DNA of 64,000 nucleotides from Moniliella sp. 'wahieum' (GCA_003971905.1 RSEE01000012.1:310001-374000); one strand, 5' to 3'. Counted from the stretch's first letter, positions 1 to 61,373 are shown. Program-made: numbers and translations. The notes: generated by a model not told the origin, from the sequence alone.

Positions 1-893
1 ATGATGCAAGAGGCCGCATGTGATGCAGTGATGGATGATCGATGAGCCGCCGGCCCAGCCACTGTTTCGTCTCGGTTGGTCTTGGGTGCGGCCTCCGCAG
101 GGAGAGGCAGTGTGGACTCATTGGTAAGCTCCGCTGCAATTTCGGTCGGCCTACGTGTTTGAGCTTAGCGGTTGCTGCATGCGAGGTTAGGTTACCGGTT
201 ACAAGGCTCTGACGTTTATCGATTATCGGTTAACGTTTGAGCCGCTCAGCTGCTGAGCCTTTGAGCGTTAAGTTTAACCGGCGGGTTCATATTTTTTCAG
301 CTGAAAAAAACGGACACAGGACGTCCTGCACTTACTTTGCGGTCCACATCCTCCCCGCCACCACCACACCGCCATCGCCACCGCCACCGCCATCAGATCA
401 TGTTATTCCTGTCCTACCCCATTGGAAGAAGTGAGACGTTGAGACCGACCCGGCCTGGAACAGCACCGCCGAGCTTTGCTTGCCTCGCTGCTCGCACGGA
501 GCAGCTGCACTCACAGAATTCATAGAATTCAATGCATTTTTCACCGAAGTTTGAGCACCGTGGAAAAAAACCCTTCGTGTCTCATTTATCTCATTGGAGA
601 GATAGATCCAGTTCATCGTTCACAGCTCGCTCACATGCCTCAACCACGCTCATTTGTATCCCTCTAATCGCGCTGCATTCAAGGCCCCCGACTTTCTGGC
701 GACTACAAGGAAAACTGTACTCCATCATCTGCATCATTGACATCAACATCATGATGGCAGCCACGAGGCAGGCGTCATGATGCATGAAACAAGGTATGCA
801 GAAAAAAACAGGCCGTGCATTTTTTTCGCAAAAAATGGTGGTACACCCGATAACCCCCACAACCCAGTTCTACAAGCAAAAGTGGCTAGTGGC

Positions 894-2227
894 TTAATAG
901 TCGTCACCCCGCGAAACGACCTCTTTGCCCGTTGGACGGAGCAGAATGGTGTGCTCAAACTGAGCCGTCATGGAGCCCGGAATGTCGGCAAGGGGGGGGT
1001 AGTCCTGCACGATCCCGTGCTCGACAAGGTGACGCAGGCCAAGCAAGTAGTTCTTCTCCCCTGTCCGCTCCAAGTAGCGGCGGCACCAAGGCAACGTGCC
1101 AAAGTTGTTGTCGATGGTACGAAGAAGGTTCTTGGCGCTTTGCAAGCGCAATGTCTTACCAACATTGGCGGGAAGATCGAACTTCTTGGCATAGTGGCTC
1201 GTCTCGCCTTGATGAATCACCAAACCCCGGCCGGTCGATCCAAATGTCTCAATAGCAAAGTACTCGCCTTCATCCATCTTGACATCATTGCCGGGCTGAG
1301 CAACAATCGGGACCGACTTGCCGCCGTGAATCTGGTAGGGACGAATATTGTGCCCCTGGAGGTTACGGATGCACTTGACTTGCTGCAGTTTGCCGTCTAC
1401 CTCGTACTCATACGACTCCATCACCTCCTGAATGGCAGCACCGATCTCACCCAGACGCGCATCAATGCCGGCCTCCTGGATACCTTTGTTGGTAGCTGCC
1501 CGCACAGCGTCCAGCAGCGGCTGGTGCGTGTCGTCAAAGGCCAGGGTGAATGCACTGTCCACGATACGGCCCTCGACTTGAACACCAAAGTCAATTTTGA
1601 TCACGTCCTTCTCACCAATCACATGCTTGTCGCCCGTGTTAGGAGAAAAGTGGGCGGCAATCTCGTTGAGATTCAACCCGGTGGGGAACCCAATTCCGGC
1701 CTCGAACCCATTCTCCTCCACCAGCGCCCGCGTTCCATCTTCAATCAAGTTGGCCGCATCAGTGAGGCTCATTCCAGGCTTAATAGTACGCTGAGCATAT
1801 TGGCGCACTTGGCGATGAACCTCGGCCGCACGACGGATCAAGTTGTAGTTGCCCTGCGGCTCCTCCTGAATCAAGCGTTCCCGCTCTTGCAGCTCCGCAA
1901 GCGGAACCCGAGCCCGGTTCTCATCCAAAAACTTGCTCTCGTCGTACGGCTGGATCTCTCCCACGGGGTACGAGTTCTTGGCAAACATCTTCGACACGGG
2001 CACAGTTGGGGCGAGGTCTGCTCCTTGACGAGCTTCTTGGCCTTCTTGCGCGCCGCCCCACTCTTGTTCTTCTTCTTCTTGTGTTCGCCCTCGTCATCGC
2101 GGGGCTCACCCTCATGCTCCTCCGAACCGATGTTCACATTCTTGATGCCGGCAGCAGCCTGGTCAACCTGGTCAACAGGCGCAGCTGCAGGCTCCGTAAG
2201 CGGGGCACTTGCGTCGGTGGTGGCCAT
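894..2227 (-). CDS. MAP2: Methionine aminopeptidase 2
   Basis: ORF 894-2003 has the MetAP2 metal-site motifs ([64 protein letters not shown]) and the C-terminus SRGDDY. The Lys-rich N-terminus MATTDASAP...KKKKNK starts at 2227 in another frame and joins via a 1-bp indel in the G run near 2008-2011. Confidence 0.96.
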
Positions 2228-2431
2228 TCTAGGAAGCTGCGCACACAATGGTGGGACTCCGTCAAGTGATCTTACCGCTGGCTTGGCAAGTGCTAATAAA
2301 TTTGAATTCCGCTCGCCTGTTCCGCCTGCAATTTAAAACGGACTCGTTGCTGGGCTGGATTGGCAGTGGCAAACAGCAAGCGGGTGACGGAGAACACGTT
2401 GGGTAGCACCCATCATCGCCTAACTTCTGCC

Positions 2432-4934: not shown

Positions 4935-4964
4935 TGATCGATAAACGTTAAACGTTAAACGTTA
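4935..4964. repeat. 7-bp periodic TNA array (TGA-TCGA-TAA-ACGT-TAA-ACGT-TAA-ACGT)
   Basis: TNA at 4935, 4942, 4949 and 4956. A second TAA-ACGT-TAA lies at 5214-5223. Confidence 0.85.
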
Positions 4965-5014
4965 CGAGGAGACCACCGGGCCTATACGGCCCGGTCAGCT
5001 GTGTCGCCACCTTA

Positions 5015-5071
5015 GCCACCGTTCCCCATCGCCACCGTTCTACCGGCCACCGTTCCACCGGCCACCGTCCC
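5015..5071 (+). repeat. ~15-bp tandem repeat GCCACCGTTCYACCG, about 4 copies
   Basis: Read directly from the sequence. Confidence 0.85.
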
Positions 5072-5342
5072 ACGCTGGAACCCTTCACGCTGCAAAGACG
5101 AGATAATATCACCGATACGCGCTGACATGGGTGGCTGGAAACGTGGCACGGGGCATGCTGTGTAAAAAGTGCACAGGGGCGTTTGGATGAACCTTAAATA
5201 CATGGAGAAACGTTAAACGTTAAAATCACAATTAACACAGTTTGGGGCCTGTGGCGCAGCAGCTCCTCGACTTGCTCCGTCCCACCACTACCTTTCCACG
5301 GCCCGCGCTTCTTGCCGATACTGCGTGGGTCCCATTCTCACC

Positions 5343-8781: not shown

Positions 8782-8950
8782 GGCGGTGGACGTGACGCGA
8801 GATGGCGGGCAGAGGGGGAAAACAGTGGGACCAAGGTTAGGTTAGCTACAACTTGGAATGAGTTAGAATGTGTGGTGCATTTAAACACGGGGCACAGAGG
8901 CAGTGTGGCAGTCGCAGGGCCTCGCGGCCCGCGCGACAGCTTCCACGTCT

Positions 8951-8994
8951 TCAACCTTCAACCTTCAACTTCAAGCTTCACGCTTTAAGTTTCA
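8951..8994. repeat. 7-bp periodic TNA array upstream of the HD gene
   Basis: TCA/TTA at 8951, 8958, 8965, 8971, 8978, 8985 and 8992. Confidence 0.85.
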
Positions 8995-9385
8995 ACCATA
9001 GCCCAGGCCGCAGAGGAGTCGGCACACTCGCCGGGCCGCTCGCTCCAACCTCTACGCCCACCACCCACCCTCCATTTCATCCTTCCATCATCTGATCATC
9101 TGATCATCTCATCATGGCCCACAACCACCCTACTGAACCAGCACTAACTTCTGACGGGCGGGGATACGGGGTTCGTGTCTTCCGCCGCCTCGCACTCTGC
9201 TGTGAGAATTGGCGCGTGCCACTCCCAGCGCGAAGACGTGTCAAAAATAAGTATATGCCGCATGGCTCCCCGCCTCCCACCTTCATTTTATACATGGAAA
9301 GTGTTCTTGTTTGATTGACAGTGGCAACAACTTCGAACGGCTCAAAGATGATAGCTTTAGTATGCAATAGCCAAGAATCAGTTGA

Positions 9386-10604: not shown

Positions 10605-12820
10605 GGTTGTCCGATACGAAGCAGTGGTAGTCAGAAAGTAGATGAGGAACGTAGCTCCAGTCAGTATCTTTAGCACTTGCTCGCGGGCGCCGTGTCGAAG
10701 TCGGAAAACGTGCTTAGCGAAAGTTGCGCACCACAGCTGCTGGGTGGGGTCGGCTCTCTGGCTTCGGTTGCGGTTGCGCATGCGGATGCGGTTAATTCAC
10801 AGTTTTTGGGTTTGCACAGGTGCGGTACAGCCGGTGGGTGTGGTACACCGTTTCCCGAGAGCGCTGTGCTGTGCTGAGAGTGTCGGGCGCAATCAGTGCT
10901 ACAGACTAGTTGCGTGCCTCACAACAGCAGTTGCGAGATACGAAGAAGCTCTGGAGGCTTGGAGAGAATAGTGGCTACCTCCTCGGTTGAGGATGTGAGC
11001 GTTGATTACGTTGATTCAACTGAAGATGATTAGCTCCAACCTCTCTACAAGACAAGTTTTGATGCGTTGGGTGCATGGCCCTGCCTCGCAGGCGGTCTCA
11101 GGCCTGATGTGGTCTCATTCAGGCGCCCGAGAGCTTCAGCAGTCCGCAGCTTCCTACTTTAGACGTGATGACGTAGGTCACGGGCGATTCTGTATGGGTC
11201 ACCGGTCATGCGCCATGGATAGCTGTCATTAATCATTCAAGTGACGAGCACGTCGCCTGTGAGTGCTGCGAGGTGGTGGTGACGTGCGCACCTCCGCGCA
11301 CGCCATCGCCGCGCCTTAGAAATTCAAGTAGCTGGCTAACAAAGATTTCCACAAGGGAAAACCAGAAATTAATATCAGGTAATAGCGCCAGTGAGTCGGG
11401 CTAGGGTTTCCATCCACGCGCAGTACTCAGTCTGAGTTACTCAGTGCCGGTGGAACTCGTGATCCACATGATTTTCGATTTTTTATCGATTATCGATTAT
11501 CGACTTGTACGATCCGTGGGGGACTACTAGCACTCGCTCGTTGGCATTTGGCAGAGGGATGAAAACGGCACGTCTAAGACAAACGGGGCATTGGGGGGAC
11601 AAGCGAGGCAATTGAGAGAGAGGATTAGCCTAAGCCAAACTCACGAACGATGAGCTTATCTACGGGAGGCAGTTGTACGGCCCATAGAGACAGACGGTGT
11701 TACACCCGGGCAAAAAGTGGGCAACGGAGGGGGCGACCAATAAAAAGCGATCCAACCTATAGCACCTCTGTTGACCACGAAGTATACCCTTTTCTCACCT
11801 CGACTCTCTCCACCGGCTCGTCGCCATCAGCATTCCTAAGACTGTAGTCGGACCGTATACGATGGGGACCAGAAGATGAACGTAAAATGGATGTGAACAG
11901 CAGTTAATGCACTTATATACAACTGGGCAGGGGATCACCTCGGCAAACGTCGCACAAGAAAGAGACAGGGTAGAGGAAGTGGACAAGGCCGGAGAAATGA
12001 AGCGAAACTGAAAGGTGGGTGGCGGGAGGGTAAAGGGTTATAATGTGATGCAATGGGGGAAATAGACGTTTCCCCCTCGTGTTCAATAGCCGTAAGCCTC
12101 ATCGTTCCCATCATTCGATGCGATTGCTCTCACATCGGGGAACGGACGGGGCGGTGGGGGTCGGTGCAGTCGGAGGCCATGTGCAGGCTGCGGCACAGGG
12201 GGAGAGGACCATGCTCATTAATCGGCCCATCGCTCCCCCAACCGGACGCACGTTCGCCTTCTCGTGCGGCCGTCTGCATATCTGGCGGTTCGGGCCAACG
12301 TGTCACATCCACCCTCTTGACTTTGGAAGCGGGGGGGGTAACAAAAGCCGAGCGGGTAGGAGGCGCCGGAGCCGGACGCTGCTGATTGGGAGTAAAAATG
12401 TAGCACTGCGTGGGGCGCAGCGGCAAGTGTTCATGTGCCCGCTCAGGATCAGCCGAGTAGGGTGAGGTACTGTATGGAAGGGGGATAGGAGGTGGCGGTG
12501 CATGTGGAAGCTGCTGGGGGAAATGAACGACGAGGCGGTAAAGAAGCAGCAGGTGTGGTCACACCCATCATCCCATCGGATGGCCGGCTGCCGGTGTGAA
12601 TAGTAAGACGGACGAGCCCTGTGCCAGCATCTTGCTTCGCCCTTTCTGCTGCGGACGACAGGGGGCAGGAGAAGGGTCCAAGTCAAGGGCTGCCTCCGTT
12701 TCTGTGAGCTGAGGGGGGGGTGGCAAACTTCGGACTCGGTTTTCGGTTTCAGTCTCCGTCTCGGTCTCCGTCTCGGACTCACTAACGTTGAATGCAGGCC
12801 CATGGCCGATGCGAGCTACG

Positions 12821-14094
<1,274 letters not shown>

Positions 14095-16333: not shown

Positions 16334-16770
16334 GCCACTGGGTCGATGGGTCTGTGATGGGCGCATCACGCAGGACCATACAGAGCCCGGATGGAAGGAA
16401 GATGAAGGTAATACTTTTAGGACACAACCGGGCGGTGGGGATAGCAAGCCTGCAAGCCAGTTGATATTGGCAGCTGTGGTGGTGCAAATCAAAGCCACTG
16501 GCCACGACACTGTTAGGCCCAGCATAATACGTCGGGCTCATGACCTGGATCCTTTGAAGCCTGAACGTTGGCTGCCATACTAATGCATAATAGCTCAATT
16601 TGAACCGAACCAACATCGGCAAGCTTCACTCGCTCTCCGTCTCTATTTGGGCGCTGGCTATTGTGTCGGCACAGCCAGTGATGGTGCACTGAGGAGCAGA
16701 GGCCGAAAGGGACCGCCTCGCACACTATATGCACAACACGGGCGATGCGTGACGAATCTAATGACGGTTT

Positions 16771-16844
16771 TCAAGCATTACCGATCACCGATCATTAATC
16801 ATTCGAATGTCGATCAACGTTCAACGTTCAACTGAACGTTCAAC
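16771..16844. repeat. 7-bp periodic TNA arrays in a divergent intergenic region
   Basis: TNA at 16771, 16778, 16785, 16792 and 16799; at 16814, 16821 and 16828; and at 16833 and 16840. Confidence 0.85.
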
Positions 16845-17815
16845 AGGCTGAGCATTTGCTTCTGCCGCTGTGCTGGTGTCGTTCCAGAGCCCAGAGCCCA
16901 GGCCCGCGGAGCCGCACCAGGCCGCACCAGCCTGCACAGGATGTGGTTTGGGAGCAGGTGGGTGGTGGCAGGCGGTGGACCCGGCCCGACGACGGAGACG
17001 ACGTGGCGGCAGGATTTGCCATGTTTGCCTCTTGGCGGGACTGCACCTGGCTGACTGCGCACGATGCCTGGTGCATGATGCATGATGTCATGCCTGTGCA
17101 ACGTGCATGTGACCAGGGACTAGGGAGGCTAGGATGCAATGATGCATGGTGCCTGATGCATGATGCATGATGTGCATGATGATGCCAGGATGTGCAGAGG
17201 ATCGGCTGGACGGGCTGGGCAGTGCAGGACGCTGCGGGCGAGGCCCTGCAGGACGCTGCCCCTTGCCCCTGCTTGCTGCCTGCTACCCCGTGCTGCCCCG
17301 GCCATTCTTGCTACGCACTACCCCTGTGCCCAGACCGGTGACCCCCGCCGCTCGATCTGCGGTCTTACTACATGCCCTAGTATGCACTGGCGCAGTGCTC
17401 AGCCGCTCAAGCTTCAGCTGAAGCGCTCGCTCGCTCATTGAATCCATCACCCATCAGACATCGGTCACAATGCGCAGCACAGGAATCCGACACGTTGAAC
17501 ACCCCCAGCTTTGGCCGCCTTGGGCCTGCTTTGGCGCCCCTCTCCTAAGGCCAAGGGTCGCAGGAGCACTAGCCAAGCTAGTCACTAGTCAACCCAACCG
17601 TGTTAGTGACTGCCCTCATGCTGGACGCTTGGCCGCCCGTGGCCGGCGACCGGTGACCGCGCCCGCGGCCTGCTCTTTTCCCCCGGGAGCTTCAGTTCTT
17701 CAGCCCCAACGCCTTCGTAATTGCTCCCCACCGGCCCTAGTCCATCGTCCCCGTTTCGCGTCCACCATCCATCGCAGCACCACACCCTTTCTTGCGCCCC
17801 CGCACTCAAGCAAGT

Positions 17816-18718: not shown

Positions 18719-20409
18719 GGAGAGAGGAGCGGTTAACCTCACATGACGGACAGGGAGACATCCATGATACTCTTCCCCTTCGCTCTCATTACTGCAGACC
18801 TCTATGCGTCTTCTTTCTTCGGGTTCGCCATATCTCTGTTTTCAAGCTTGAGCTCTTTCACATCCTTCTCCTATCTTTTCACGCTTCCTCTGCTCCCCTC
18901 GCGCTCGGTCTTTAGTGGTACTACCCTTGTTCTGTCTTGGTCTCTCTTCCCAAGAACACTTTTTTTTCCCATTGGCACTTGCCAATGTCCACGTTCTCTG
19001 TGTGCCATGTCGAGTCTGTTCCGCCTCGTGTCTCCTGTTCTCTTTCATCTCCTTTGTACCTTTCGTTGTTTGCGTCATTCCAGCCACCACGGCACATGTA
19101 ACACCACAGACACCCTTAGCTCCTTCGGCACGTGGTCAAGTAGCGATGGGAATAGGAAGTGACTGAATCGACGCTCCAACGTGCTGAAAGTCATAGTACA
19201 GAGCGCCTACTAGTGTCTAACATGAGCTATGATGTACAGGGCAGGGCACGGGAGGATGAATGAATTGCATGACATGTGCACCAAGGTATTGCGCCCTCGC
19301 TCATCGACGCCAAGCTCAAAGGCTGGACAAGCTCGCGGACCGCACCCAAACCACCGGCGCTCGTCTCAAGACTCTTAGGTCTCTGGCCAGCATGACGACC
19401 AGCAACAGTCATGGATGAGCGCAGACGCCCGAAGGCGAAAGGCCGATCTGATGAAGCGGTGCTTTTTGGAAGGCCAGGTTCCGCGTCCTTTGGACGCTAA
19501 GCGTTAAGGGAAACAAAATCAGCCACGCCATCGAGGCCTTTTTATACCTGGGCGCTGAGGCTCAGCCAGCGATCACGGAGAATTTTGATTCCGCCCGTTC
19601 CTTTTTCAAGTGGAGGACTTGGTTCCGCCCGCGGCCAGATTTGATTATGGATCGCTTGCACCGATTCCGCCTGGTGGTTCCGGACGGGGGTTGCCGTGTG
19701 GTTAAACGTTAAACGTTAACCTGGGTCGCCGGGTGGTGTCTGGTGGTGTCGGGGAGGCAGATGACCTGTGTGCATGTGACCGGTGACGGTGTCAGAGGCC
19801 AGGTAATTTTATCGGCATCCGAAAGCGACGGAGCAGGCCGCAGCACTGGCGCAGCGTAACCCAGTGTATCACATGCACACAAGTGGCGCCCACCCGACGC
19901 CGAGGCGCACCCAGCCACCCCCTTTCTCGCTCGTATGCCCCCCTTGCGCCCCCCGAGCTAGTTGGTCCGCGAACCTTGAAGCTTGATGTGGCCGAGCGAG
20001 CGACTCCATTGCAAGTTTCAGAACACTCCCCCATCCTGTTTCCTACGCGATGCATGATGCACAGCACAAAGCACAGCACAGCACAGCACAGCACATTCGC
20101 CGCCGCCGCCCCGATCCGCCACCACCACCTTCTCTCCTCCTTCGTGGCCATGCCCGATGACGCCCTCGTCCCTGAGCATGCGCCGCACCCGCCTGACGCT
20201 GGCCCTGCCAGCCTTGGAGTGGCCACCTCCGCCTCCCCTCCTCCCTGGCCGGTGCGTCGGACAGGGCCATCACCCCCACCCCCCCTGCCACCCTGCTGTA
20301 CCCATCGCTTGAGTCTCTCTTTACGCTTCCTTTTGCCCTCCATCTATATCCTCCTCCCACGCTCTCCTATCGAGTAGACCGCCGTCCGCGCCGTGCTACT
20401 GCCCCCCGC

Positions 20410-27851: not shown

Positions 27852-28033
27852 AGTGGTAGCACAGCGTGACGTTGTAGTAGCAGTGGAGATAGTGGTGGAG
27901 GTGGCGATGGAGGTGGCGGAGGTGGTGTGGTTCAAGTTGAACGCGTGAGGTGAACCCTGACAGGCCGGTGACAGTGATGAGAAAGTTTGGCCGACCAAGG
28001 AAATTACAATATTTCATGTCCTCGTTGCAGGAG

Positions 28034-28611
28034 TGACTAGTGACTACTCGATGACGCATGGCCCTCACGCGTGACAGTTATTAGTCGCTGTGTCACATGT
28101 CAGGTGACACTAGTGACATGTGACATGTGACATGCGACAAAAACCTAGCGTTCCCGGTGACCGGTGGCCACCAGCGTGACACGTGAGAGCGTAGCACTGG
28201 CCTAACGCCTAACACCCCACTGGGCCAGTCATCTAGTCATGCATCATCGACCCTGCCTATTAAAAGGCTCCCTTCCTTGAAGCTTGAAGCTTGACTTGAG
28301 CCTGAGAAGTGTGCCAAGCGTAAATATAGGTGCGCATCCCCACCTCTACCCTGCGCTTTTCATTTCCACCTGACCTTCCTGAGCCCCATACCCCCTCATC
28401 CCCTTCATCAATCGCATGTGTGCTGCAAACGAAAGAAAGCCTGTCGCTTTTCTATACAGGGAGAATGAGCGGACGCACAATGCAGTAGGAACGTATACAC
28501 GACCACCCCCCCAAGGGTGGTTGCGGCCGGTTAGTCTCCACAGCTTCACTTCTCGAAGCGTTGGACGTGACGCGTGACGTGTGACGTGTGTGCGTGACGC
28601 ATGATGCATGA
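28034..28611. repeat. Cluster of 7-bp periodic TNA arrays (CTAG, CGCG, CATG, AGCT, TGCA spacers)
   Basis: TGA at 28034/28041; 28114/28121/28128; 28278/28285/28292; 28568/28575/28582; and 28595/28602/28609. Confidence 0.85.
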
Positions 28612-28841
28612 TGTGCATGATGCAGCCTCGCTGAGACCAGCACAGCGACAGTATGCAGGACCAGCAGCACGAGGCCCGCTTAGTACCGCTCTCTAACACC
28701 CCCGCATTCGGGCAGACATTCGCACACTGCACTGGCGCCGTCCCATTGGAGCGTCCGTTGAACGTGTCGAATACGTTCAACGTTTAGTCCTGACCCTTTT
28801 TCAGGCAAAGTAGGCATGGTAAAGGGTTTAAACGCCAAGAC

Positions 28842-30685: not shown

Positions 30686-31318
30686 CGTGGGCGGAGGCAG
30701 CTGGAAGGGCTTTGCAACAGCAAGGCGGGAGCGGGTGGGTTGAGCAAGCTGGCTGAAGGAAACGCGAGCAGGAGATGCGATGCCAATTTCCAGCAGGACG
30801 CGACGAGCTGCCGGGGTATACTGACGAGGGAGGCTCTTAGCTAAGCAGCCCTGGGGGGCTTCCCGGTGTCTCCCATTTGACCTTTCAAATGGGCATTGGG
30901 TCCTGGGTGCCGGCCAGACTGAAAGTTGAAATGACGCATCCATCCAAAACCAGGTACTCAAACGCCGCCCCGGGCTTATTAATTGCACACACTCGGCCTG
31001 TGCCGGTGCGTCGGCCATCTGTGCTTTGCAAGCGCCGGGCCCAGCGCAGCACGGCGCCTGTCTCCCCCCGCGTCCCGGCCATGCACCTGCCGGTGCTGAG
31101 CTCAGCCGTCACCGGTTACCATGGTCACCGGCTCAGCGCTCACCGTGCCCAGTCAGGCTCACCTATCTGGCCAACGGCGCTCATCGGCCATTAATCATTG
31201 GCATCACCGGTGGCTGGGCAGCCAGCGCCAGAGCCAACCCACAGCCAACCCACAGCTTCCCCTCTTCTCGCCCACGCCGACGACCTCCCCCGCGCATCTC
31301 TGCGTCCAGCCTCCCTCC

Positions 31319-36758: not shown

Positions 36759-39517
36759 CCGTATGGAAGGGTTCAATGATCGATTTCATATGTATATACG
36801 CCCCGGGGAGAGTCTCCTTCGTCCCAATCTCTCTCTATGTTTTCCTCGTCTATCTTTCATGCCCAACTTTCGCCTGCGACCACAGTTACCCCCTTACTCC
36901 CCCCCTTTTTTCCCCGCACGGCCATCTCAAGACTCATCCATCCTTCCTGATGCATTCAACTTTGGGAAAAGATGCATGATGATGAGAATCTTTTAAGACA
37001 ACATCTCTCGTCTCCTTGTTTTATCAACAGTTCTTTCTCTCTTGTTGTCTTTGGATTTTCTATCTATAGCTTTGTATTGACGGTGTATGTGATGCCTTCA
37101 GTGTCTCCCCTTTCCTCAATGATACATGATGGTCGATGTCTCGACTCTCCTTTTCTTTTATATACCCCCTTTTCCGTGTCGCACATGGCTTTGCTCCTTA
37201 CCTTTCCTCTCCCTCACGTGCCCCCCCCCCCCCCCCCCTTTATTGATGGTCCATCCTCTTTTCTCCGTTTCCCTTTTCCAAATTTCCTCCCCCCGATTTC
37301 TCAACCACCTCTTTCCCTGTTCCATTCTCTTTGATCATGAACCTCCTGGTCAACAGTTCTTACGCACATGTCTAGTGCATGCCACCGCAGAGTGGGTTGT
37401 GCCGCCGTTCTGTTCATATTCCTGAGGCAATACTCGTCTTGGGCACTCAGATTGAGATACGAGATGAAACTGATGAACTCTCAATGACCTCTGTTTAAAG
37501 TACGAAGAGTAATAATTTGTGTCAAGGTATACTATAGACTTAGTAGTCGATGTCGGAGAATCCACTGCGTCCGGCGGATACCACAGCTAACACAAAATAG
37601 AGAGGCATGTGGAACAATGGGGACTCAGACAACGGATACACATCACTAGTCACTCTAGTCACTACATCCCAACAGCACGTAAGCTTCCGCCCCATCTTGG
37701 ACGGGTTCCCACTATATCATACTGGCAGCCTCTGACAAAAACGATAGCGAAGAGAGAGTAAGCGCTTTTTCAATGCAGCTCCAGCCACGCCTGACATTGC
37801 ATGTATGTGACATGTGACGAGCCAGCTGTGGTGGCCAAAAGTGAAGAAGGAGCATCAGCTTGATGCACAACACCCATATATCAGCACTCGCGGTGATTAC
37901 CTGCATATAGATCATAACTCCTGATCCTGTGGTGAGTGGTGTTGTGAAGGCTTCAATTATTGCGGCTCGCGTCCCATCAGTTGATCTAGCCTCTCACGAT
38001 CACTGTTCAAACAAGCATTCCAGCAGACCGCCTCTACTGCCATCATAGCGGGGCAGTGTGCCCCCCCCCCCCCCCCCACCACCGCATAATATGCATGTTG
38101 CTGCTTTCAGCAGAGCACACCAACGAGATCTCTCTTTTCATATTTTTTTCCTCCTTCTTTGCCGCCCCCTGCCATCTTTTCTCGGCATGGCTTCCACGGA
38201 CTGATCCCGATACCGACCTGACCCATGACCAGTAATGTCCCCACAGTTGTGGATCGTATTTCATGGAGGCAGAACCTCTCAGGAAGAGTGGCGCACTTCG
38301 TCCCTTATAATCATTACTGATTTAGTCACAGTTGGGGACTCAGGCGAGGAGGATGACCTGATTTGAGACAAGGCCAGAGACCACTATAATGTAGCAATCG
38401 TTTCTATGGGAAAAGAAACATGATGATACGAAGCAAAGCCGAAGGACAAGGAAAGAACGAGGCGGGCAAGACCGATATACTGATTGGAAATGGAAGTGAC
38501 GATGAAGTTATAGCCGAACCAAGACAGAAATCACTGAATTCTCTTGCGGGCACCAGGGGTAGCATGGGAACGCCCCACATGCGTTGCTCACTGCCGTATG
38601 GATGGGCTCAACAACAGCCTCGATGAGTCTGAAATGCGTTGGCCACAAATATCCTTTTGCGGCCATGTAAAAGCTCAGGCAGAGGATGATATTACAGGCC
38701 ACTTGAGCTGTGATGAGACCTGGAGTCCTGATGGTCCTCGAGGGTGATGCAATCGCACTGGTGGTGGTGGTGGTCTAAGCCAACCAGCAACGCCTACAGA
38801 GGAACAACAAGCACGAGTCGCCACCAGGGGCTAAGCTGCGGAACAAGGAAAAACAAGAGAGAGAAAACAACGGAACTCCCACACAGGCTTGAGGAGGAAC
38901 TGAAGGGACATTGGCCAAAGCACGAGCCACCCGATGGCTCAACAAGCTGTACTCTGCGTCTGTTCGCCCCCGCCCATCTATATTTCGTGAAGCCGAGATA
39001 ACGATCGGCTACACACCAGTGCCCACTGCACTACCCCTTATTGTCAAGCTTTTCAAGGGGGGAATGAATTGATTAAACTTTTTCTTAAATCAAGATCGCT
39101 GCGTGTGGGCTGCAACTCTCACTCCTATAGCCGCCGTGTAACTTGTGATGCATGATGGAAGACCACATGACCCGGCCACTGCCTCGGCCCCATTCCTCAT
39201 TCTCTGTATACTGGGTATACTATAGCAGGAGCCACATGATGCATGAACAATAACAGCGAGGGATCAGGCCCAGGCCTCAGGGGGATCACTGATGCTCAGC
39301 CGGCATTAAACGTATTGCGCACAGCGTCTATTACAATCAACGTACCACATCCAAACTGTCCAACGTATTAATTCCTCTGTAACAAGTAATCCAACGTCCT
39401 TCCTCTGTCCTATCATGCATATCATGCCGCATATCGGGTCCGCCCCTGCGCAATTCTCTTGAGATCAATTTCCAACAGCCTCCCTCCCCCGCATATAGTA
39501 CGACGTCTGTACATCCA

Positions 39518-40020: not shown

Positions 40021-41129
40021 TCATTCCGCCCTCTGCAACACCTCTAGCAGTTCCTCATACCTCGTACGTGACTGGGCCAGGCACACCTCCACCACCTCTT
40101 CTGTAGCCAACAACACAAGGGAACGAGGATGGAGCGCTGCCGGGCTGGCTGGCACGGCAGTACCCGGCCTGGTGCAGGAGCAAGATCTGCGCTGGCCCAA
40201 CGCTCGTCTCGAGCGGCTTGGTCTGCGTCAAAGCCTGGTCGGGATCGGTGCTACTAGCCCAACGAACACCCATTTCCGTGTCCCCCGCCAAGCCCACTGT
40301 GATGCTGGAGGCAGAAGTAAAGCCTTCTTCAAACGCGCTGGGTCCGTAAGTAGATGCTCCCCTTCATACACACCAAACGTGAAGCACAGTGGCCAGCAGA
40401 GCAGCGGCAATGCCCATTTGTCTTCCTCATGCGGGCTGCACACCACGCGACCGGAGCGGTCGTCGTAGAGGGCTTTGGGCAAACGGGCTGCAGGTGGTTG
40501 TCAGCATATCACCAAAGAAACAATGACGGGCGAGAGGGGGGATAGTAAGGAGGGGCGACAACGTACTATTGCGTAGCGCACCCAACGCCGCTAATGCCGC
40601 GGCATTGGACACATTGCCATCATGACTCATGACGCTCACATCGAGATAGAGACACCAGGCTGCCACGTCCTGTGCAATGGCCAACGCGCGTGGGTCCAGT
40701 ACGGGTCGGCTGGGAGATGTGAAAAGAGAAGCCAGACGCTCTGCAATGGTTTGTGCCTCGTCTGACGGTGCGCCCGGGCGGGTGCGGGAAGAGCTCATAG
40801 GTGTGATCTCGATGTTGGGCACGAGCCACCCGGCGGTAGAGGAGCCGGCGGCGTGCAGCCCTCCTGGCGGTGCGACTTCGCCCTTAACGCTTGCCATGAC
40901 GGTTGTTGATCCCCAGCGCACCAGACAGCTGCCATGAGCCGAGGAGATTGCGCCTGGTACCACCGACACGTTGCGCCACGCAGTGAAGTCCCGAGCATCC
41001 TCCCCCGCCCGAGGCAAGGAAGCGCTCGAGGTAGGTCCGGGGGTGGAGGCGCTTGAATGCGGCGGCGCTTGTGCGCAGCTCCTCTTCCGACAGGTTTGCC
41101 GTGTCCTGGGTCGGGAGGGCAGCAGCCAT
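40021..41129 (-). CDS. RRP43: Exosome RNase PH-like subunit Rrp43
   Basis: AAFKRLHPRTYLERFLA, GSCLVRWGSTTVMASVKGEV, GWLVPNIEITPMSSSRTRPGAPSDEAQ, AWCLYLDVSVMSHDGNV and LLTDP; ends RYEELLEVLQRAE*. Confidence 0.85.
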
Positions 41130-43301: not shown

Positions 43302-43857
43302 GGTGGGAGAAGGGCGGAGAGGCGGGTGCGGAGAGATGGGAGAGGGAAGAGAGGGGGAGGGGGCGTGGGTGCGGGTGCGGGTGCGGCGGGGCGTAGGAAC
43401 GAAGAGTCGGGATGGGACGAAGTCCGAAGCCTGCAGTTTGCGGTCTGAGCCTGATTCATACGAGGGGCGGTGGCTATGCCAGTGCCATGCGCTGCTATGC
43501 CTGGCCACGCTGGGTGCCAGCGCTGGGCTGCCTGGGCCGGCTGGACGCATGTGACGCGTCGCCGCCGCCTGTTCTTCCGCTGACGTCAGCCTTCGACTTC
43601 TCGATTCTTCTGGCAGGGGGCGTAGGGTTGGTCGGTGCAAGCTGTCCTGCCCTGCCCGGCGATGCTGCTGGATTTGATTTGGCTGAATTTGAGGCGGCCG
43701 GTTGTTCGAGTTCGTCGGCCGTGAATTGGTCATCGATCATTGACCAGCGACATCATCGATCCGCGACGTCATCGACCATCGATCCCTGCTGGCACGTGAC
43801 ACTGTTGATGTGCTTTTTGCCCCGCTCACATGTCACAGGGACACGAGTGCTGCTGCC

Positions 43858-49361: not shown

Positions 49362-50481
49362 GGCCAGCAGACAGACAGACGGTGGGGCTGTGCGTTGCGG
49401 CAGCCGTCGGACCCAGAGCCGGACCCCAGAGCCTACTCCAGCTGGTGCTCACATCTCAACCTCAGGCCTCGCGCGTGCTGCCTGACGCGTGATGCCTGAC
49501 GTAAGCCCGCTGTTCCTAGCCCGGCTGCGCACTTGCGGCGTCCTCGCGTCACATGCATCACACATCACAGTCACACTCGACGCGCTGCGAGTCGCGCTGC
49601 CCCGCAAACACGGCCCCTGCGGTGATGTCACAGGCACAGCTTGCAGCACCTCGTTCACCAGGTTCACTAGTCACTAGTCACTCTGGTTTGAAGCGTTCAT
49701 ATTCATGTGCCCTGGCGGGATTGAAAAGGGCTAGGAGCGTCGCAGCATGGCGTCGCACTGGCATAGCCCCGGCAGCTAAATAGTCTCCTGGTCCAAAGCA
49801 TGTGGCACTAACGTTATCGACAGGTAATAGCCGACGGCGGTGTTCCGCGTCAACAACCACTTTGTTCGGGCGAAGGAAGAAAACTCAACCCCACACCAAA
49901 GCCCGATACAACTTCATTTTGTCCTTTGGGAACAAGGAAGTTGGCAAAACCTCTCGACGTACTCACCGTCCATTCCGAACTGAACCGGACTAAGCAGTTC
50001 ATCCGTCAAGGTGGTGCCCACGAAATCCGCTTCCCCATCAAACACAGTCAGGATTATTCCAACCCGCACACCGACTTTCGCCTGACGCTGCAGAGGTACC
50101 ACAACCCCAGTGGCCCGCATTACCCCACTGTGGGCGAACATCTGGGCTTCCCTCTCTCGGAGAGATCTCGGGATCTCTTGAAGGCTCCTACCGCCCATGG
50201 AGGCTGGTGCAGTGGCAACGTCGTGAGCTGGGTGGCAATGGAGTATACTGTGCGTTTCCAAGAACTAATTCCCTGATCTTTCAACATACGAATACGTTTG
50301 AACGTATATGAACGGTCCGAGATACGCAGCGTCTCGGGTTCTGTTCTTCTACTGGCTTTGTCGGTCCATCGAAGACAACCAGTTATACCAGGGGTTATTG
50401 TTGTTTTCCTTTCTTTTCTACCCATCTCCAAGTAAGGTATATACTGTGCGTGAATGTGAGGCTCACTGATCCGGATGTCCA

Positions 50482-50630: not shown

Positions 50631-51250
50631 TTGCACGCTGACGTTTTTTGATGTTAAACGTGCTGAATCTGTTGCATCTATTACTCGAGCAAAATTTAGC
50701 TCGCCGTAATAAAGGACAGCCAGTCAGATTATGTTGTGACGTGTGGAAGGGATGATATATAGCTCGCTTGCCTAGCTGACGCCGTACCCGTACCCTCAGG
50801 CCTCACGTGCCACTCAGCGCCTCCGCCCGACGCGCGCGCAGCCCCCTTGTCCTTCGCCCCTCCTCTTCCTGCGCTAGTTGCCTGACTCGTTGCCACCGCC
50901 ACGCTCTACGCTCTATATAGTCGCAACCTTCTCGTTTCCGCTCATTGCTACCGTCGGCTAATTTAGCCCTCTAGCTTGAAGACTGCGCGTCAAATAGGGT
51001 GCTCTGCTTCCACGGCGCAACCATTAGGCATTAAGCGATGATCTCGATGGTCGGATGAGGCCTGAGGCCTCCTGAGGTGGTGGGTGGAGGGGGCGCAGCA
51101 ACTATATATTGAACCACTGCAACGTTGAAAGCATGGTTTCCGTGGGTAGGATTTTCACACGCCTCGTGCCGCTGTGGGGAGTCAACGTTCAATTGAACGT
51201 TCAACTTTGCCTCGCCACAGTGGCGTAGTAGCAAGCGGGCACACTGCGCA

Positions 51251-51316
51251 TTCGCAGTAGAGCAGATCAGCCGCCGTGCAGTCTTCGCAGTAGAGCAGAT
51301 CAGCCGCCGTGCAGTC
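51251..51316 (+). repeat. Exact 33-bp tandem duplication
   Basis: ttcgcagtagagcagatcagccgccgtgcagtc occurs twice in tandem. Confidence 0.95.
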
Positions 51317-51853: not shown

Positions 51854-51860
51854 TATATAA
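51854..51860 (+). promoter_or_regulatory. Putative TATA box
   Basis: TATATAA about 108 bp upstream of the ATG at 51962, followed by a pyrimidine-rich tract. Confidence 0.45.
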
Positions 51861-51961
51861 CCCCCCGCTCTCTCTTCCTCTTTCCCGGTCCAGGCGTCAA
51901 GTGCTTAACCCCCTTGCCGTCGTCTCTGTTTTGTTGTCCCCTCTTTCCCTTGTTCCGCACT

Positions 51962-54503: not shown

Positions 54504-56488
54504 AATATGGAGTGCAGGGGACGCGCGGGATGACGGCGGATGAGCAGGGAGGGGCTGAGATGGTGGGGGTTGTAGTTGGGGAGCCGAAGTCAGCACACCC
54601 GGTGTCAGGATGCTAGGGCGCCGCTCGCAGCGCAAAAGGGGCGCCGGGAGGACCAGCTGAGGAAGAGGAGCGAGGAGGAATGTGGACGGGCGGGCGCTGA
54701 GCAAAGCAAAGGAGCAGCCAGCCAGAGGCGCAGGCGCGCGACACCCCGAGTACGCAGCCCGAAGTACCAAAAGTATTCCAGCAACACAAAGTGCTCACCG
54801 GGTGCCAGTGCGGCCAGCAGGCCACCGGTCACACGTCACACACATCCCATCCATGCCGCCGTCGCCCACATAGCAGCATGCGCCAGTTGTTGCAGCGCCG
54901 CACAGCGCCAGCGGCCGCCGGCCGCAGGGGGCAAGCCCAGCGTGCCACATGCCACGCTCTGTTCACGCGTCACGCGCACCGGGCGCGGGGGCAGTGCTGC
55001 CCCACCTAAGCCCGGCGAATAGTAAGCGCTAAGCGCTAAGCCTGGGCCCCCCTGGCGGAATCCGGTACCCGGTAACCCTGCGTCGGCGCAAGTGGCGCGA
55101 GAAACTGCCTGCCTGATCCAGCAGCCGCCACGCTGGCCGTCCGCAGCGGACAGCGTTGCGCCCAACCCTAGCCACCACCCAATGGGGTTCGTCCCAATTG
55201 TGCTGGGAATCTGTGAACTGGGGCTGGGCCCGGGGAACATGGGATGCCAATCGAAAACCCCGATGGCGGAGGCATACCGGGGCCAGGCTTACCAGTGGCC
55301 CACCACGCAACCGGCAGGGTCGCACTCTTGAGTTTGGGCATTGGCGGCACTTGCTCTCGTGCCGGCGTGGCAGTGTCAACGTATGTCGACGTTCCACGTG
55401 GCAACGCTGCCCAATCCCCTCGTTTACACGATGGCCGGTGGTGCTGGGTGACACCCTGGCCTGGGCTTGGCAGCCGATGCACCCGCTTACATAAACATGC
55501 CGGCCCACTCCCGAGGCTTTCCGCGTCACGCGCCGCTGCCGCCTTGGCGACTCGCCTTGCTCGTGTCGTAAGCATTTGCCCATGCTGTTTGGCATAGCTC
55601 CTCGGCGCATGGTGGCGCAGTGACGGACACACCTGCGAATGTGCTGGGGGAGCAACACCAGCCGACACCCCTTTCCGTACTTTGTCCCAGGTGGGCACCG
55701 CCGCACCCTCGTTCTCTTGGTGCCGTGGACGATGGGCGATGCTGTACTTCGTGGCCGTGCACCCAAACCAACTGACTTGAAGCTTGAAGGGAGTGAATCT
55801 AGAATCCATCATATCTATTCTCTCTACGACACGTATGCGTCCTTCAATGCACTCAGTGGCACTGTGTCGCATGGCACATGCCAATTCCTTAGTTGGTGCC
55901 CCACGGGCAGGTGGGCGCGATGGTGGTGGAGACTGGGATTTCAAGGCCGGAGCCTGGCTTAACGGCAGTCCCCTAAAAAGGCGTTCAACTTTTCAGAGTC
56001 TCTCATTATCAACAGCACAACTATGGACACACACATCCCCCAGCTGCGTCGCCATCGGCAGTACCCGTTCGCATCCATCCACCTGGAGCATGGCCCTCGT
56101 CCCATCAGCACCCCCCCCCCCCCCCGCCCTACCCCTCCACTCCCCTTGCCTTCTCCCTCAGGCTCTTGATCTGCTTCTTCTCGATCCGAGCATGAATTAT
56201 CTGGTGTGTAGTACTTAGACAGTAATGCAAGTAATGCTTGCGCCAGAATCTGAGGGCTGGCCGCTCATCGGGCTCACCAGCATCCGGGCAGTTCTGGTCT
56301 ACTCGAAAAACATGTATGTATCCACGCTGGGTTGCCCTACATTTCTACGCTTTCCTATGGACCCCCCTCCCAGTAGTATTGTGCTTGGTATGCATCGCTT
56401 GCCCCACGGTCACGCAGCCTGAAAAGAGCAGAGATGAGTCGGAGAGATTGGTCGTACATATGGAATAGAAGAGAGGGGAGTCAGACTT

Positions 56489-58084: not shown

Positions 58085-59436
58085 GACTGAACGCGGCGCT
58101 GATGGTGGTGGTTGCAACGGGGGAAGACGCTGGCCGGATGAACTGCTGGCGGCGCAGCTACCCACACTTAGCACCTCCTTGAGCCTCCTTGGTCTGTGGG
58201 TACCAGTCACAGGAAAAAAATCATGATCGAAAGGGAAAAGGAAAAAAGAAAAAGAAAGCCCCACCAGCCTGACGGCCCGACTAGCCTGGCTTGGTTGTAG
58301 GCAGATGGAGCGTACTCTCCTGCCGCGGCGAGTGCAGGAGATGGAGGCGGGAGAAGGACATGACCTCGTTGGGTCTGCCCTCGAACGAAGCGCCGCTTCC
58401 CATCCACCAGGTGGTAGCCCACTCCCGGCTGCGCAACGCTGCGGCGGTGCCATGGAGCAAGAGCGGGAGCGAGGCATACCGATGCCACCGCTGACCAATG
58501 CGCCGGCGCTGCCTTCAGCTTCACGGCTTCAAGCGCATAAAGGCTTGTTGTGCATGCCCCATCATGCACATCATGCATCACATTACCGGCGGGGGTGTTA
58601 GCGGGACCATCCAGCTTGCGTTGCGGGGCGCACGTGAGTGCGCACGTTGACCTGGCAGTGTCGCAGATCGCCCGGAAATGCTTAGCTGCTGGGCAGCACA
58701 GGGTGAGCAATGCGGCGGCACGGAATATGGCACGATTCAACTGGATTCCAGGGGATGGTGCGGGCTGTGCGGAAGGCCGAGGACGCGATGCGCCCCGTGG
58801 TGATGCATGTGCATGATCATGCCATAGTAGGTGTTGTGCTTCAGTCAGGACACGTGGGCCCCGCACGCGGAGCAGAGCAAGCTAGCGTGCTCTGCTGAGC
58901 CTAGTGCTCAAGCTGAGCGGCTGAACGGACTGCGGAACGCGTGAAGCTTGAAGCCAGCCACTAGGCGGAAATGGGTGACTGAGATCTCAGGAGAGGGGGC
59001 AAAGCAGGGGCCACCCAAAGCGCACGCTCCCCCTGACCGCCTCCCGCCGGTACGCCCGCCCGAGTAGGTGCGCGCAGGCATGGGGTCAGTGGGGTAAGGG
59101 CGTTGGTCACGTGATACACGAGGATCTGTGAAAGGACGAGCGATGATCGATGATCGGCGACGCGTGACGACGCGTGTGATGAGGCATGACACTCCGATTA
59201 GAGGAGCAGATCTCAGGATCTCAGAGGCGGGCCGCGGAGGCTATCGGCTGCTGAGCTGTACCGTGTACGCTGATAGCGAGCGTGTTGTTTACCCCACGTG
59301 GTACGTATAGCCCGCCCGATAGGAGACACGCGTCGCTGCGCCCCAATCACCAGTCTCCTAACCCGCCGCCCGCCCGTCGACCATCCCCACCATCCCCACC
59401 CCTTCTCCGTTACCCGCGTTACCTCCCAATCCCACC

Positions 59437-60092
59437 ATGAAGCAGAGAATCGTTACGCGCCGCGCCCGCAAGCAGCAGCGCCGCGAACAACACCAGCCAC
59501 GCAGCAGTCCCCCCGCCAAGTCGCCCTGCTCTCTACACCGGCTGAGCAGCCTGCCGCGCCCCCGCCGCGCACACACTCTCCATCCAAGCACCGCCCCTGC
59601 CCCCCACCCCCTATCCCCGCCCTGATCGCCCCGACGCATGCAGAGGAAGCACCAGCGGAATCTGTGACAGCCAGCCGGCCGATTATACGATTGGCTCAAA
59701 GCCCGGAAACCAGTACCGCTCGCGTACTAGTTCAGCTGCGGCTTGGAGCGCTCGTCGACCTCGAAGCGGGCGAGTACGATTGGCTGGAGGATGGCACGCC
59801 GGAAGGGCCCTCTGCGTTCAATGGTACCGCGTCCTACGGCTCCTCGCTATCGAGCATGGTCACGGGATCCTTGGGCTGGTTCTTGCGCCATCCCGGGCCA
59901 GGGGGGCAAGATGCCTGCCCCTGCCCCTTGTCGCCCCCATGGCTGAGCTGGATGAGGTCGATTGGGAACATACCCCAAGTCAGCGTCCTCGTTCTCGAGA
60001 AGCACCATCCCGATGAGCGGACTTTGCGGAAATGGTATACGGCGCGTGAGGCCCCGCTTGCGGAAAGGGCAAGTGTCTTGCAAAGAGCGTGA
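59437..60092 (+). CDS. Hypothetical protein
   Basis: MKQRIVTRRARKQQRR joined by an indel to ...ARVLVQLRLGALVDLEAGEYDWLEDG...ILEKHHPDERTLRKWY-like segment. No family recognised. Confidence 0.45.
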
Positions 60093-61373
60093 AGCCATCA
60101 AGCTTCTGTATACGTGCTCATGTGCTGTGCACCCATGGTCCAAGCTATTTTTTCCTTTTTTTTTTCTGTCTCTAAGGCCTAAACCTGCCAAGTCTCCACC
60201 CAGTGCTTGCAGAGAAACTCGTCTCTCGATCTTCTGTGCCTCTCCGTTGCCCCGCCTCTGACTGCTTCAATTCACTATCGCTAACGGAAAAAATAACGTA
60301 CTTTCCCTTGCCTTTGCTGCCTCGTTTACTTTTCGAAACCAAATCCACTTGCCGGCTCGCGATTTACAATTACACACGATCTTACCAATGTATTACTCAA
60401 ATACCACGATTGACAAGGACCGAGAAAACGGCCATAGCGGAGCGAGTTTGTCCGCGACACTGTGTACCACCCTCTGGGGGCGCCATGGCGAATATGGTAG
60501 CGAACATTTCAGGGAAGGATATAGTCTGGGGGTTTGTTGTCCCTGCTCCATGGCCGATAAGGTTGATGAGCTGCGACACATCTATATATAGCGGCTAGTG
60601 TTGGATTCCGAACTTTATTCGGAGTAGTCCATGCTTTTCCAACGCAGTGGGAACAGAGCAGAATGCATTACACCATCACCGGGAGGTGTGGGGCGCACAA
60701 AACCGTGTTATACGCATACTGTGGGCCCCAAGGCCAAGCCGCCGATGCCACGTTGGGCCTGATGTTGGCACTTTCCCGCCCCTACCGTTCTTGGACAGTA
60801 ACGCTGGATCAGGCAGTTGAGCGGGCAGGGCTGGTACCACCCCCAGGCGAGGCGGCCATGATCTCAACAAGCTCTTGCTCTACTGCGGCCTAGACGGTGA
60901 CGAGCAGCTGGCAGCTGCCAACTCAGATAGCGGACGGATTTCATAGTCATGCATCATGCAGTGTGGGTTAAATTTAAGCGCTAAGCGACAAGCATTAATT
61001 AATCCCATCAAATCTCGAACACCTGTCGGGAGGATCTGAGATGGTTCCACTTTGATTTGGTCAGCAGCATCCAGTCTGCCCGGAGAGCAGCACTGCGCTG
61101 TGCACTGCTTGGTGCCGCATACGTAGGTACGCCCTGCCAGGCACCTCGCCCCCCACCACCGCCAGCACCAACGCCTCTGTCACCGCCGTCGCCTCTCCCC
61201 CCATCGACCATCCCGCCGTCCAGCCCCCCACAGCCTTCTTCTGCTCCAGGTGCGTCATGCCCCCCCCCGCTGCCGCACCCGGATCGAAGCACCAGCTGAC
61301 CTGTACCTCCTCCTTCCTGATCTCCTTCTGCAGCACTGTGTGTGACACGACCCACCCTACGCACCTGCGCATC

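Follow-up and report, generated by a model that had tools for sequence, protein, structure and literature searches.

Period-7 T-N-A arrays in fungal promoter DNA as candidate footprints of transposon excision

We analyzed a 64-kb stretch of fungal genomic DNA, referred to as the window and numbered from its first base, in which short non-coding arrays carry the triplet T-N-A every 7 bp with palindromic 4-bp spacers between consecutive triplets, a pattern that a preliminary description of the same DNA had presented as a promoter-associated grammar. The window has a G+C content of ~57%, and both of its strands are rich in short open frames. Its genes are of fungal type and encode MetAP2/M24, an M16 peptidase, lunapark, a protein kinase, a 2OG-Fe(II) oxygenase, two WD40 proteins, SKN1/KRE6, RNase PH, an NTF2 plus RRM protein and a MutS homologue; Rfam and tRNA scans of the 64-kb window returned neither Rfam families nor tRNA genes. 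Among named proteins, the best matches to the MetAP2 frame, at 70-71% identity, come from Violaceomyces, Pseudozyma flocculosa, Malassezia, Thecaphora and Tilletiaria, all of them Ustilaginomycotina, and two other proteins are nearer to it, at 94% (P0121) and 77% identity. Because the best named matches stand at 70-71%, we take the host to be a member of the Ustilaginomycotina with no close named relative, and the lineage guess of the preliminary description was roughly right.

The recurrence of T-N-A (hereafter T.A, with x for its middle base) every 7 bp with palindromic 4-bp spacers is real and far above chance. As controls we used shuffles, made either across the whole window or, with dinucleotides preserved, within 300-bp blocks. 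The core motif, consisting of T.A, a palindromic 4-mer and the same T.A, was found 60 times at 51 loci. Shuffling the whole window 100 times gave a mean of 2.3 with a maximum of 8, and block shuffling a mean of 2.34 with a maximum of 7. Runs of three T.A triplets numbered 32 when the triplets were spaced 7 bp apart, compared with 3-12 for each of the periods 4-6 and 8-12; for period 7, 100 block shuffles gave 6.7 ± 2.6 with a maximum of 13. Likewise, exact period-7 arrays of at least 15 bp numbered 22 compared with 0.9 in 30 shuffles, and arrays of this length at periods 8, 9, 10, 11 and 12 numbered 1, 3, 1, 2 and 1. No enrichment was seen when the same construct was built with A.T, C.G or G.C triplets (1 vs 2.1, 6 vs 6.2 and 5 vs 6.7 in shuffles, respectively), nor when palindromic spacers of 2, 6 or 8 nt were placed between T.A triplets.

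Those examples of the preliminary description that were re-read, listed in Table 1, have the right coordinates. Its statement that 13 of the 16 palindromic tetramers serve as spacers is correct for the pattern overall but drops to 11 in same-x loci, as AATT (60968) and GATC (58980) are seen only in loci whose two x bases differ. Spacers of the form W-S-S-W occur at ~2 times their expected frequency. The arrays are diverse in sequence, symmetric between strands and accompanied by decayed copies: 41 loci carry a perfect 12-mer (0.47 expected), 38 a 12-mer with a single violation (7.1 expected) and 117 one with two violations (93 expected). Perfect or near-perfect loci come to ~100 per 64 kb, or ~1.5 per kb. 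Tandem Repeats Finder lists the head-to-tail period-7 copies as separate small arrays.

The two triplets flanking a spacer tend to be the same triplet. In 76 10-mers of the form T.A, palindromic 4-mer, T.A, x was identical 60 times, complementary 11 times and otherwise different 5 times, and x usage tracked the availability of TGA, TCA, TAA and TTA in non-coding DNA. Among odd palindromes of 7 bp, exact tandem pairs were formed by 30 of the 268 centred on T.A, compared with 0/199 for A.T, 0/312 for C.G and 0/302 for G.C, and of the 41 exact runs of period 7 that reach 14 bp or more (homopolymers dropped), 22 consist of T.A-centred odd palindromes. Total periodic length had two peaks, 12 nt with 16 loci and 19 nt with 6 loci, values that equal 5+7k. 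The 10-mer was typically extended by exactly 2 nt and on one side, with 12 loci of type (2,0), 9 of type (0,2) and only 2 of type (2,2); the two orientations are about equally frequent, and x shows no polarity. The typical element can be written TxAn1n2-n2'n1'-TxAn1n2. A symmetry of the target, with G over C at position 2 and C over G at position 6, appears as a trend only, in 35 loci, and TGATGCATGA or its complement is present at 9 loci.

The junctions between copies carry inverted complements of the adjoining bases. Among 95 D5-N2-D5 words with D = T.A.., 65 had a 2-nt spacer that exactly reverse-complements the 2 nt before it; 15 matched at a single spacer base and 15 at neither, some of the last group belonging to AACGTT arrays read in another register. 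With any other D, a reverse-complement spacer was found in 41/549, and non-T.A words in the corresponding D5-P2-D5 form were only mildly enriched, at 16 loci vs 7.2 ± 3.1. Extending the unit to T.A-centred 7-mers (abTxAn1n2), we found repeats with spacers of 0, 1, 2, 3 and 5 nt at 20, 2, 10, 1 and 1 positions and none in the window with spacers of 4, 6 or 8 nt, where by our own estimate chance gives ~0.2 pairs per spacer length. The spacer equalled the reverse complement of the adjoining 7-mer end in 8/10 cases for 2 nt, 1/1 for 3 nt and 1/1 for 5 nt. Because such spacers also stand between 7-mers that are not perfect palindromes (AATCAAC, TATCATG, AGTAATG and GGTAACG), the inverted bases are not a by-product of a palindromic unit.

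These features were captured in an explicit junction model, which keeps the first 7-mer whole and substitutes, for the opening p bases of the second, the inverted complement of the end of the first. For p from 0 to 7, the 14-mers obeying the model on both strands together numbered 40, 36, 65, 65, 4, 4, 1 and 0, where 20 shuffles gave at most 0.55 for any p. When the 14-mers were sorted exclusively, 30 fitted p=2-3 only, 30 were ambiguous (palindromic unit), 10 fitted p=0 only, a group that by our reading of the list includes other registers of AACGTT arrays, and 4 fitted p=4-5, the class with complementary x. Direct repeats of.T.A. 5-mers showed the same distribution of step sizes, in that period 7 gave 34, period 8 gave 9 and period 9 gave 19 vs 2.2-2.9 expected, with background values at periods 5, 6, 10 and 11 (3, 5, 2 and 0). 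Net insertions of +7 are the commonest, with fewer of +8 and +9. Three short period-10 repeats of 1.9 copies with ACGCGT or AACGTT (59158-59176, 36361-36379 and 55374-55392) did not fit the exact model and may be further junction variants, composed of a 7-mer and 3 bases.

Table 1. Principal T-N-A arrays and related repeats in the window. Strand is named only where + or - was assigned; p is the number of inverted-complement bases in the junction model, and the last column gives T.A positions listed in the preliminary description, all re-read and right.
Coordinates	Strand	Feature	Remarks	Positions re-read
29..49		TGA-TGGA-TGA-TCGA-TGA	three T-x-A in phase; core 10-mer 36-45, 2 nt extra on left	29/36/43
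190..236		TTACCGGTTA (192-201), then TTA-TCGA-TTA-TCGG-TTA-ACGT (216-236)	second part in one phase	192/199; 216/223/230
4935..4964		ATCGAT-A-(AACGTT-A)x3	heterogeneous in-phase array; exact period-7 run 4942-4964	4935-4956
5208..5224		AACGTT-A-AACGTT array	directly upstream of lunapark-type gene (+)	
8949..8995		CTTCAAC x3, then TCAAGCTTCA	degenerate period-7 array; CTTCAAC T.A-centred, non-palindromic, p=0 type	
9087..9115		period-8 array, ATCATCTG x3.6	T.A-centred TCTGATC + 1 inverted-complement base (net +8 type)	
11001..11016	-	AATCAAC-GT-AATCAAC	non-palindromic 7-mer x2, 2-nt reverse-complement spacer (net +9 type)	
11483..11503		(TTATCGA)x3 array	upstream of 2OG-Fe(II) oxygenase gene (-)	11483/90/97
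16780..16844		ACCGATC x2, TCATTAATCA, (TCAACGT)x2.7, then GTTCAAC-TGAAC-GTTCAAC		
16826-16844 (part of the row above)		GTTCAAC-TGAAC-GTTCAAC	7-mer x2, 5 inverted-complement bases between	
17059..17196		ATGCAT-G arrays	divergent intergenic; with 19-mer 17154-17172 and CATGATG-TG-CATGATG 17166-17181	17154/61/68
17578..17591		CTAGTCA x2	contains TCACTAGTCA	17582/89
19701..19719		(GTTAAAC)x2.7	19-mer	19703/10/17
28032..28294		AGTGACT x2, TCACATGTCA, ACTAGT-G-(ACATGT-G)x2, TCATGCATCA, (CTTGAAG)x2.7	densest cluster	28114/21/28; 28278/85/92
28566..28624		CGTGACG x2, GTGACGT x2.4, TGATGCATGATG, CATGATG-TG-CATGATG (28607-28622)	TGATGCATGATG is a 12-mer	28568/75
37641..37663		TCACTAGTCACT + AGTGACT-AG-AGTGACT	latter on minus strand (37648-37663, net +9 type)	
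39411..39426	+	TATCATG-CA-TATCATG	imperfect-palindrome 7-mer x2, 2-nt inverted-complement spacer	
43730..43739		TCATCGATCA	start codon/5' end of NTF2/RRM gene (-); divergent region common to MutS-type gene	43730/37
49483..49501		TGA-CGCG-TGA-TGCC-TGA		49483/90/97
49664..49682		(TCACTAG)x2.7	19-mer	49664/71/78
51056..51077		TGAGGCC x2.1 + CCTGAGG-CCT-CCTGAGG (51061-51077)	latter with 3 inverted-complement bases, net +10	51056/63
54963..55041		TCACGCG x2 (54963-54976), (TAAGCGC)x2.7 (55023-55041)		55023/30/37
55776..55789		CTTGAAG x2		
56221..56236	+	AGTAATG-CA-AGTAATG	non-palindromic T.A-centred 7-mer x2, 2-nt inverted-complement spacer	
58560..58580		third copy (reverse complement) of 21-mer TGATGCATGATGTGCATGATG	contains CATCATG-CA-CATCATG	
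58937..59156		ACGCGT-G-AAGCTT-G-AAGC (58937-58954), TGAGATCTCA (58980), CGATGAT x2.3 (59141-59156)		58980/87
59408..59423	-	GGTAACG-CG-GGTAACG	imperfect-palindrome 7-mer x2, 2-nt inverted-complement spacer	
60904..60987		CAGCTG-G-CAGCTG, TCATGCATCATGCA, TTA-AATT-TAA-GCGC-TAA-GCG	CAGCTG-G-CAGCTG is of non-T.A type	60968/75/82

To place the arrays relative to genes, we mapped genes from Pfam hits together with a self-trained 3-periodic Markov coding score, which yields rough models; a codon-only coding score was weak and was replaced, and splice-signal density was uninformative as an indicator of strand. A 519-codon ATG frame at 777-2336 (+) lies antisense to the MetAP2 frame at 894-2093 (-), and only the minus-strand frame has a Pfam match, which shows that spurious frames run long in this G+C-rich DNA. 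Predicted coding segments cover 19,587 of the 64,000 bases (30.6%) and are overlapped by 2 of the 51 loci, at 31133 and 43730, both at the very start of a frame. The 51 loci group into 19 clusters, of which 4 lie between divergent genes (16581-17592, 31133, 43730-43836 and 58571-59154), ~8 are upstream of a single member of a tandem gene pair and the others are unassigned. None of the 51 same-x loci is in the four regions callable as convergent, where two complementary-x 10-mers occur (8090 and 24724), and some upstream regions have no array. A 5' bias is supported and likely but falls short of rigorous proof, because genes were placed only by Pfam matches and the self-trained score.

From the sequence, we read the T-N-A grammar, with moderate confidence, as a population of footprints left in promoter DNA by the excision of a cut-and-paste transposon. 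A fixed direct duplication with inverted complements at the junction matches the known signature of a target-site duplication with hairpin-derived P nucleotides. In the mechanism we propose, a cut-and-paste DNA transposon or a transposase-like nuclease would enter NN-T-N-A-NN sites and duplicate these 7 bp. Upon excision, hairpins would seal both flanking ends, and a nick in each, ~2-3 nt from its tip, would give one 7-bp copy a short tail in which its terminal bases appear as their inverted complement, the P nucleotides. The ends would then often be joined through a single T/A match, which the symmetric T-N-A target would always supply. The commonest product, abTxAn1n2 + n2'n1' + TxAn1n2, would amount to a net gain of 7 bp and would mimic a T-x-A, a palindromic 4-mer and the same T-x-A, and repeat visits to either T-x-A would each add 7 bp or would add a different palindrome in the same phase. 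The upstream placement of the arrays could reflect insertion into open promoter DNA combined with the purging of frameshifting +7 events from exons; hAT elements, for comparison, prefer nucleosome-free DNA.

Excision would account for the anatomy of the arrays feature by feature. The period would be 7 because the duplication is 7 bp long, and T-N-A would mark the middle of a symmetric target, such as a dimeric transposase is expected to use. The identity of x would follow from the derivation of both copies from one base, and the spacer would be palindromic whatever its sequence because one half is copied from the other. Junctions with p=2 and p=3 would be equivalent since the third P base complements A and is identical to the T that it replaces, which provides the one-base match for joining. 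The extension of 2 nt would be one-sided because the outer two bases stay beside the junction in one copy only, and lengths of 5+7k would arise from repeat visits. In-phase arrays that keep the same x and change the palindrome (4935, 28109 and 58937) would come from visits to the outermost T-x-A that were resolved from the other side, and the complementary-x minority would represent the p = 4-5 products.

Several observations weigh against an excision origin. Pfam and inverted-repeat searches of the 64-kb window found no transposon, no pair of terminal inverted repeats with a 7-bp duplication and no transposase domain; terminal inverted repeats, sought with and without 7-bp flanking repeats, did not exceed chance by our estimate, the single candidate obtained being the number expected. 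As neither an element nor a transposase lies in the window, we infer the agent from its presumed products. The density of scars is very high, at ~100 loci in 64 kb, and the outcome is unusually uniform, with deletion-type products (periods 5 and 6) at background, unlike those of Ac/Ds. The hAT target is nTnnnnAn with an 8-bp duplication, unlike NNTNANN. The spacers AATT, ATAT, TATA, GATC and GTAC are represented by 0 same-x loci vs 14 expected from availability, a preference that excision leaves unexplained. Finally, an identical 21-mer at three promoters and a 24-mer at two go beyond what independent events readily give; their recurrence hints at selection on some copies or at an outcome strongly set by the local word.

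The identical 21-mer occurs at 17161, 28602 and 58560, three unlinked promoters, and reads as CATGATG + TG + CATGATG, that is, two intact copies and two P bases. Its copies show no similarity in their flanks, and we rejected its interpretation as a dispersed mini-element for this reason. The 24-mer is built from AACGTT, is near-identical (23/24) at 16821-16844 and 51182-51205, and in its 51182 copy holds an 18-bp perfect palindrome, AACGTTCAATTGAACGTT. A separate tandem pair of TGACTCA (TCATGACTCATGAC) at 40620-40633, within the RNase PH gene region, is formed by an A.T-centred 7-bp palindrome that resembles an AP-1/Gcn4-type site; just three perfect palindromes without a T.A centre are duplicated at period 7, and this is one of them.

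Other copying geometries were tried and rejected. A 7-bp duplication limited to perfectly palindromic targets fails because full 14-mers are a minority and the modal form is the one-sided 12-mer. A 5-bp duplication with 2 P nucleotides, as for a Transib-like element, fits the 12-mers but needs an asymmetric T.A and fails on AATCAAC-GT-AATCAAC. A 3-bp T-N-A duplication with 2 nt contributed by each transposon end would need at least 11 different termini and leaves the one-sided extension unexplained. Strand-switch or fold-back copying alone predicts complementary x, the minority class (11/76).

We compared the proposed scars with those of known systems. Footprints of hAT elements (Ac/Ds and Tam3; PMC5873905) are alike in retaining the target-site duplication twice, in junction bases that are inverted complements of the adjoining flank, in having few dominant types and in joining by 1-nt microhomology. 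In Candida albicans, Ac/Ds footprints are short deletions or P-nucleotide insertions, two types predominate (35 and 18 of 128 clones), microhomology is frequent and the position of hairpin opening varies by host (PMC5873905). The present scars differ from canonical hAT footprints in their unit of 7 bp instead of 8 bp, the flanks outside the 7-mer being unrepeated, and in that deletion types are nearly absent and the scars are natural, stacked in arrays and known from scars alone. Duplications of 7 bp are reported for the hAT7 families of Pucciniales, which group with Ac and Tam3, and for the Kyakuja elements of Laccaria (Agaricomycotina), where the canonical hAT duplication is 8 bp long and that of Harbinger 3 bp (PMC12730594). 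Both groups are basidiomycete DNA transposons with the duplication length seen here; they are reported from subphyla other than Ustilaginomycotina, and neither was detected in the window. The grouping of hAT7 with Ac and Tam3 would lead one to expect excision of the hairpin type. Kyakuja elements have CA..TG ends without inverted repeats, and their mechanism is not known.

Other transposon families share single features with the scars. PIF-type targets are long and symmetric and are built around a T-N-A-type triplet, and PIF/Harbinger (PHIS) elements duplicate 3 bp (or 0-2 bp), whereas whole 7-mers are duplicated here, including two bases on each side of T-N-A. Duplications are 7 bp long in Galileo elements, 5 bp in Transib/RAG and ~9 bp in Mutator-like elements. 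V(D)J joints and the Transib-RAG and Mutator-like systems have hairpin-sealed flanks, off-centre opening and short palindromic P additions in common with the scars, and Mutator-like elements transpose like hAT and Transib (PMC5499845); the scars here do not belong to an immune-type programmed system. Our literature searches found no description of this T-N-A period-7 scar pattern.

The nearest alternative does without a transposon. Breaks at T-N-A in open promoters, made by a host nuclease or a domesticated transposase, would be repaired by fold-back or template switching or by hairpin opening, an account that we judge unlikely. It is close to the second option of the preliminary description, scars of fold-back or template-switch synthesis, which was right about scars and about a partly inverted copy and fell short of the structure found, a direct NNTNANN duplication with 0-5 junction bases. 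The lack of a transposon within the window and the very uniform outcome both favour break and repair, and a general repair signature might show itself as the mild enrichment of non-T.A words in the D5-P2-D5 form. However, a fixed 7-bp duplication, sometimes with both copies intact and inverted bases between them, is the expectation of staggered transposase cleavage; fold-back alone predicts the complementary x that only 11 of the 76 10-mers have; and microhomology would serve A.T, G.C and C.G triplets alike, yet those are unenriched.

We consider it improbable that the arrays are a functional promoter grammar, that is, arrays selected because a protein or complex binds them at T-N-A with 7-bp spacing, or because each A-NNNN-T palindrome is bound by a dimeric factor of its own. 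Loci clustered upstream of genes would suit such a grammar, as would recurring words (TGATGCATGA or its complement, the 21-mer and the 24-mer), and some cores, ACGCGT (MCB) and GATAA, resemble known fungal sites. Nevertheless, transcription-factor site arrays, such as heat-shock-element-like ones, are expected to have conserved positions that are read and free positions that are not, and a T.A reader needs no identical x (60 same vs 11 complementary), no self-complementary spacer across 11 tetramers and no array ends in fixed phase. Many separate factors with one odd geometry would be implausible, and non-palindromic 7-mer junctions with inverted-complement spacers lack binding logic. We attribute the same x, the palindromes free of any set sequence and the 5+7k lengths to common descent by copying, not to protein readout, and they tell against the factor reading T/A every 7 bp that had been suggested at the outset. 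A secondary regulatory role of some scars could still be superimposed on an excision origin.

Growth of heptanucleotide microsatellites by replication slippage, with palindromic units favoured through slipped-strand pairing, is a far weaker candidate for the origin of the arrays. Microsatellites share the head-to-tail period-7 copies, some arrays reach 4-7 imperfect copies (8949-8995, 17133-17172 and 28566-28604), and slippage must contribute to copy-number change once two copies exist. The modal element, on the other hand, has 1.7 copies (the 12-mer), which is beyond a 7-bp slippage event, and variants of period 9, 10 and 12 carry inverted-complement spacers. The arrays also end in phase, are built of T.A-centred words only, and show the one-sided 2-nt extension and length modes of 12 and 19 nt, and a comparable excess is absent at periods 8, 10 and 11. 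An assembly or base-calling artefact is of negligible probability, given a pattern that is sequence-diverse, strand-symmetric, non-coding and accompanied by decayed copies, and given that no error mode is known that inserts templated 7-mers.

Excision footprints as such are textbook knowledge; what would be new here is a 7-bp NNTNANN target, near loss-free junctions, natural accumulation at ~1.5 per kb and a stacking in promoters that mimics a regulatory code. If the excision reading is true, a mobile element that is now locally invisible was active over a long time and left its record in the window, where it is read from its scars alone, and these scars would give the target of the element (NNTNANN), its duplication length (7 bp) and the way in which the host opens hairpins (2-3 nt from the tip, with almost no base loss). 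As a tentative and broader conjecture, a transposon or domesticated transposase with this 7-bp NNTNANN target may have visited promoters of this sparsely sampled Ustilaginomycotina lineage so frequently that its scars build a sizeable share of them, in which case excision and not insertion would be a main source of new cis-regulatory DNA in a compact fungal genome. Since each scar makes an A-NNNN-T palindrome, the process would generate palindromic dimer-type binding sites, some of which would be fixed and reused; candidates for such reuse are the arrays of AACGTT and of ACGCGT and the ATGCAT 21-mer shared by three promoters. Co-option of some scars would provide a concrete, testable route for the birth of palindromic binding sites. 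The excision reading, if correct, would also show that a mutational mechanism can mimic a regulatory code, which would call for caution in the discovery of motifs in fungal promoters.

One pair of similar, promoter-like stretches in the window was tried as an internal before/after comparison. The stretches at 33300-33390 (+) and 38850-38960 (-), inverted and similar over ~90 bp, lie 5.5 kb apart and flank the SKN1/KRE6 region; they have in common an identical 27-mer, GGAGTTCCGTTGTTTTCTCTCTCTTGT, and a CCAAT-like box, and look like duplicated promoter/leader regions of two convergent genes, not transposon ends. One copy has TGAGGCCTGAG where the other has TGAGCC, a possible 7-nt difference at TGAGGCCTGAG between copies that are much diverged and ambiguous in alignment. 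Elsewhere, a perfect 33-bp tandem duplication (51251-51316; 2.0 copies, 100% identical) lies near a 7-bp scar cluster. Three C homopolymer runs of 17-19 nt occur at 37221-37238, 38061-38077 and 56111-56129, and an E-box-like word, CCTCACGTGCC, precedes or resembles the sequence at two of these three runs and at site 50801.

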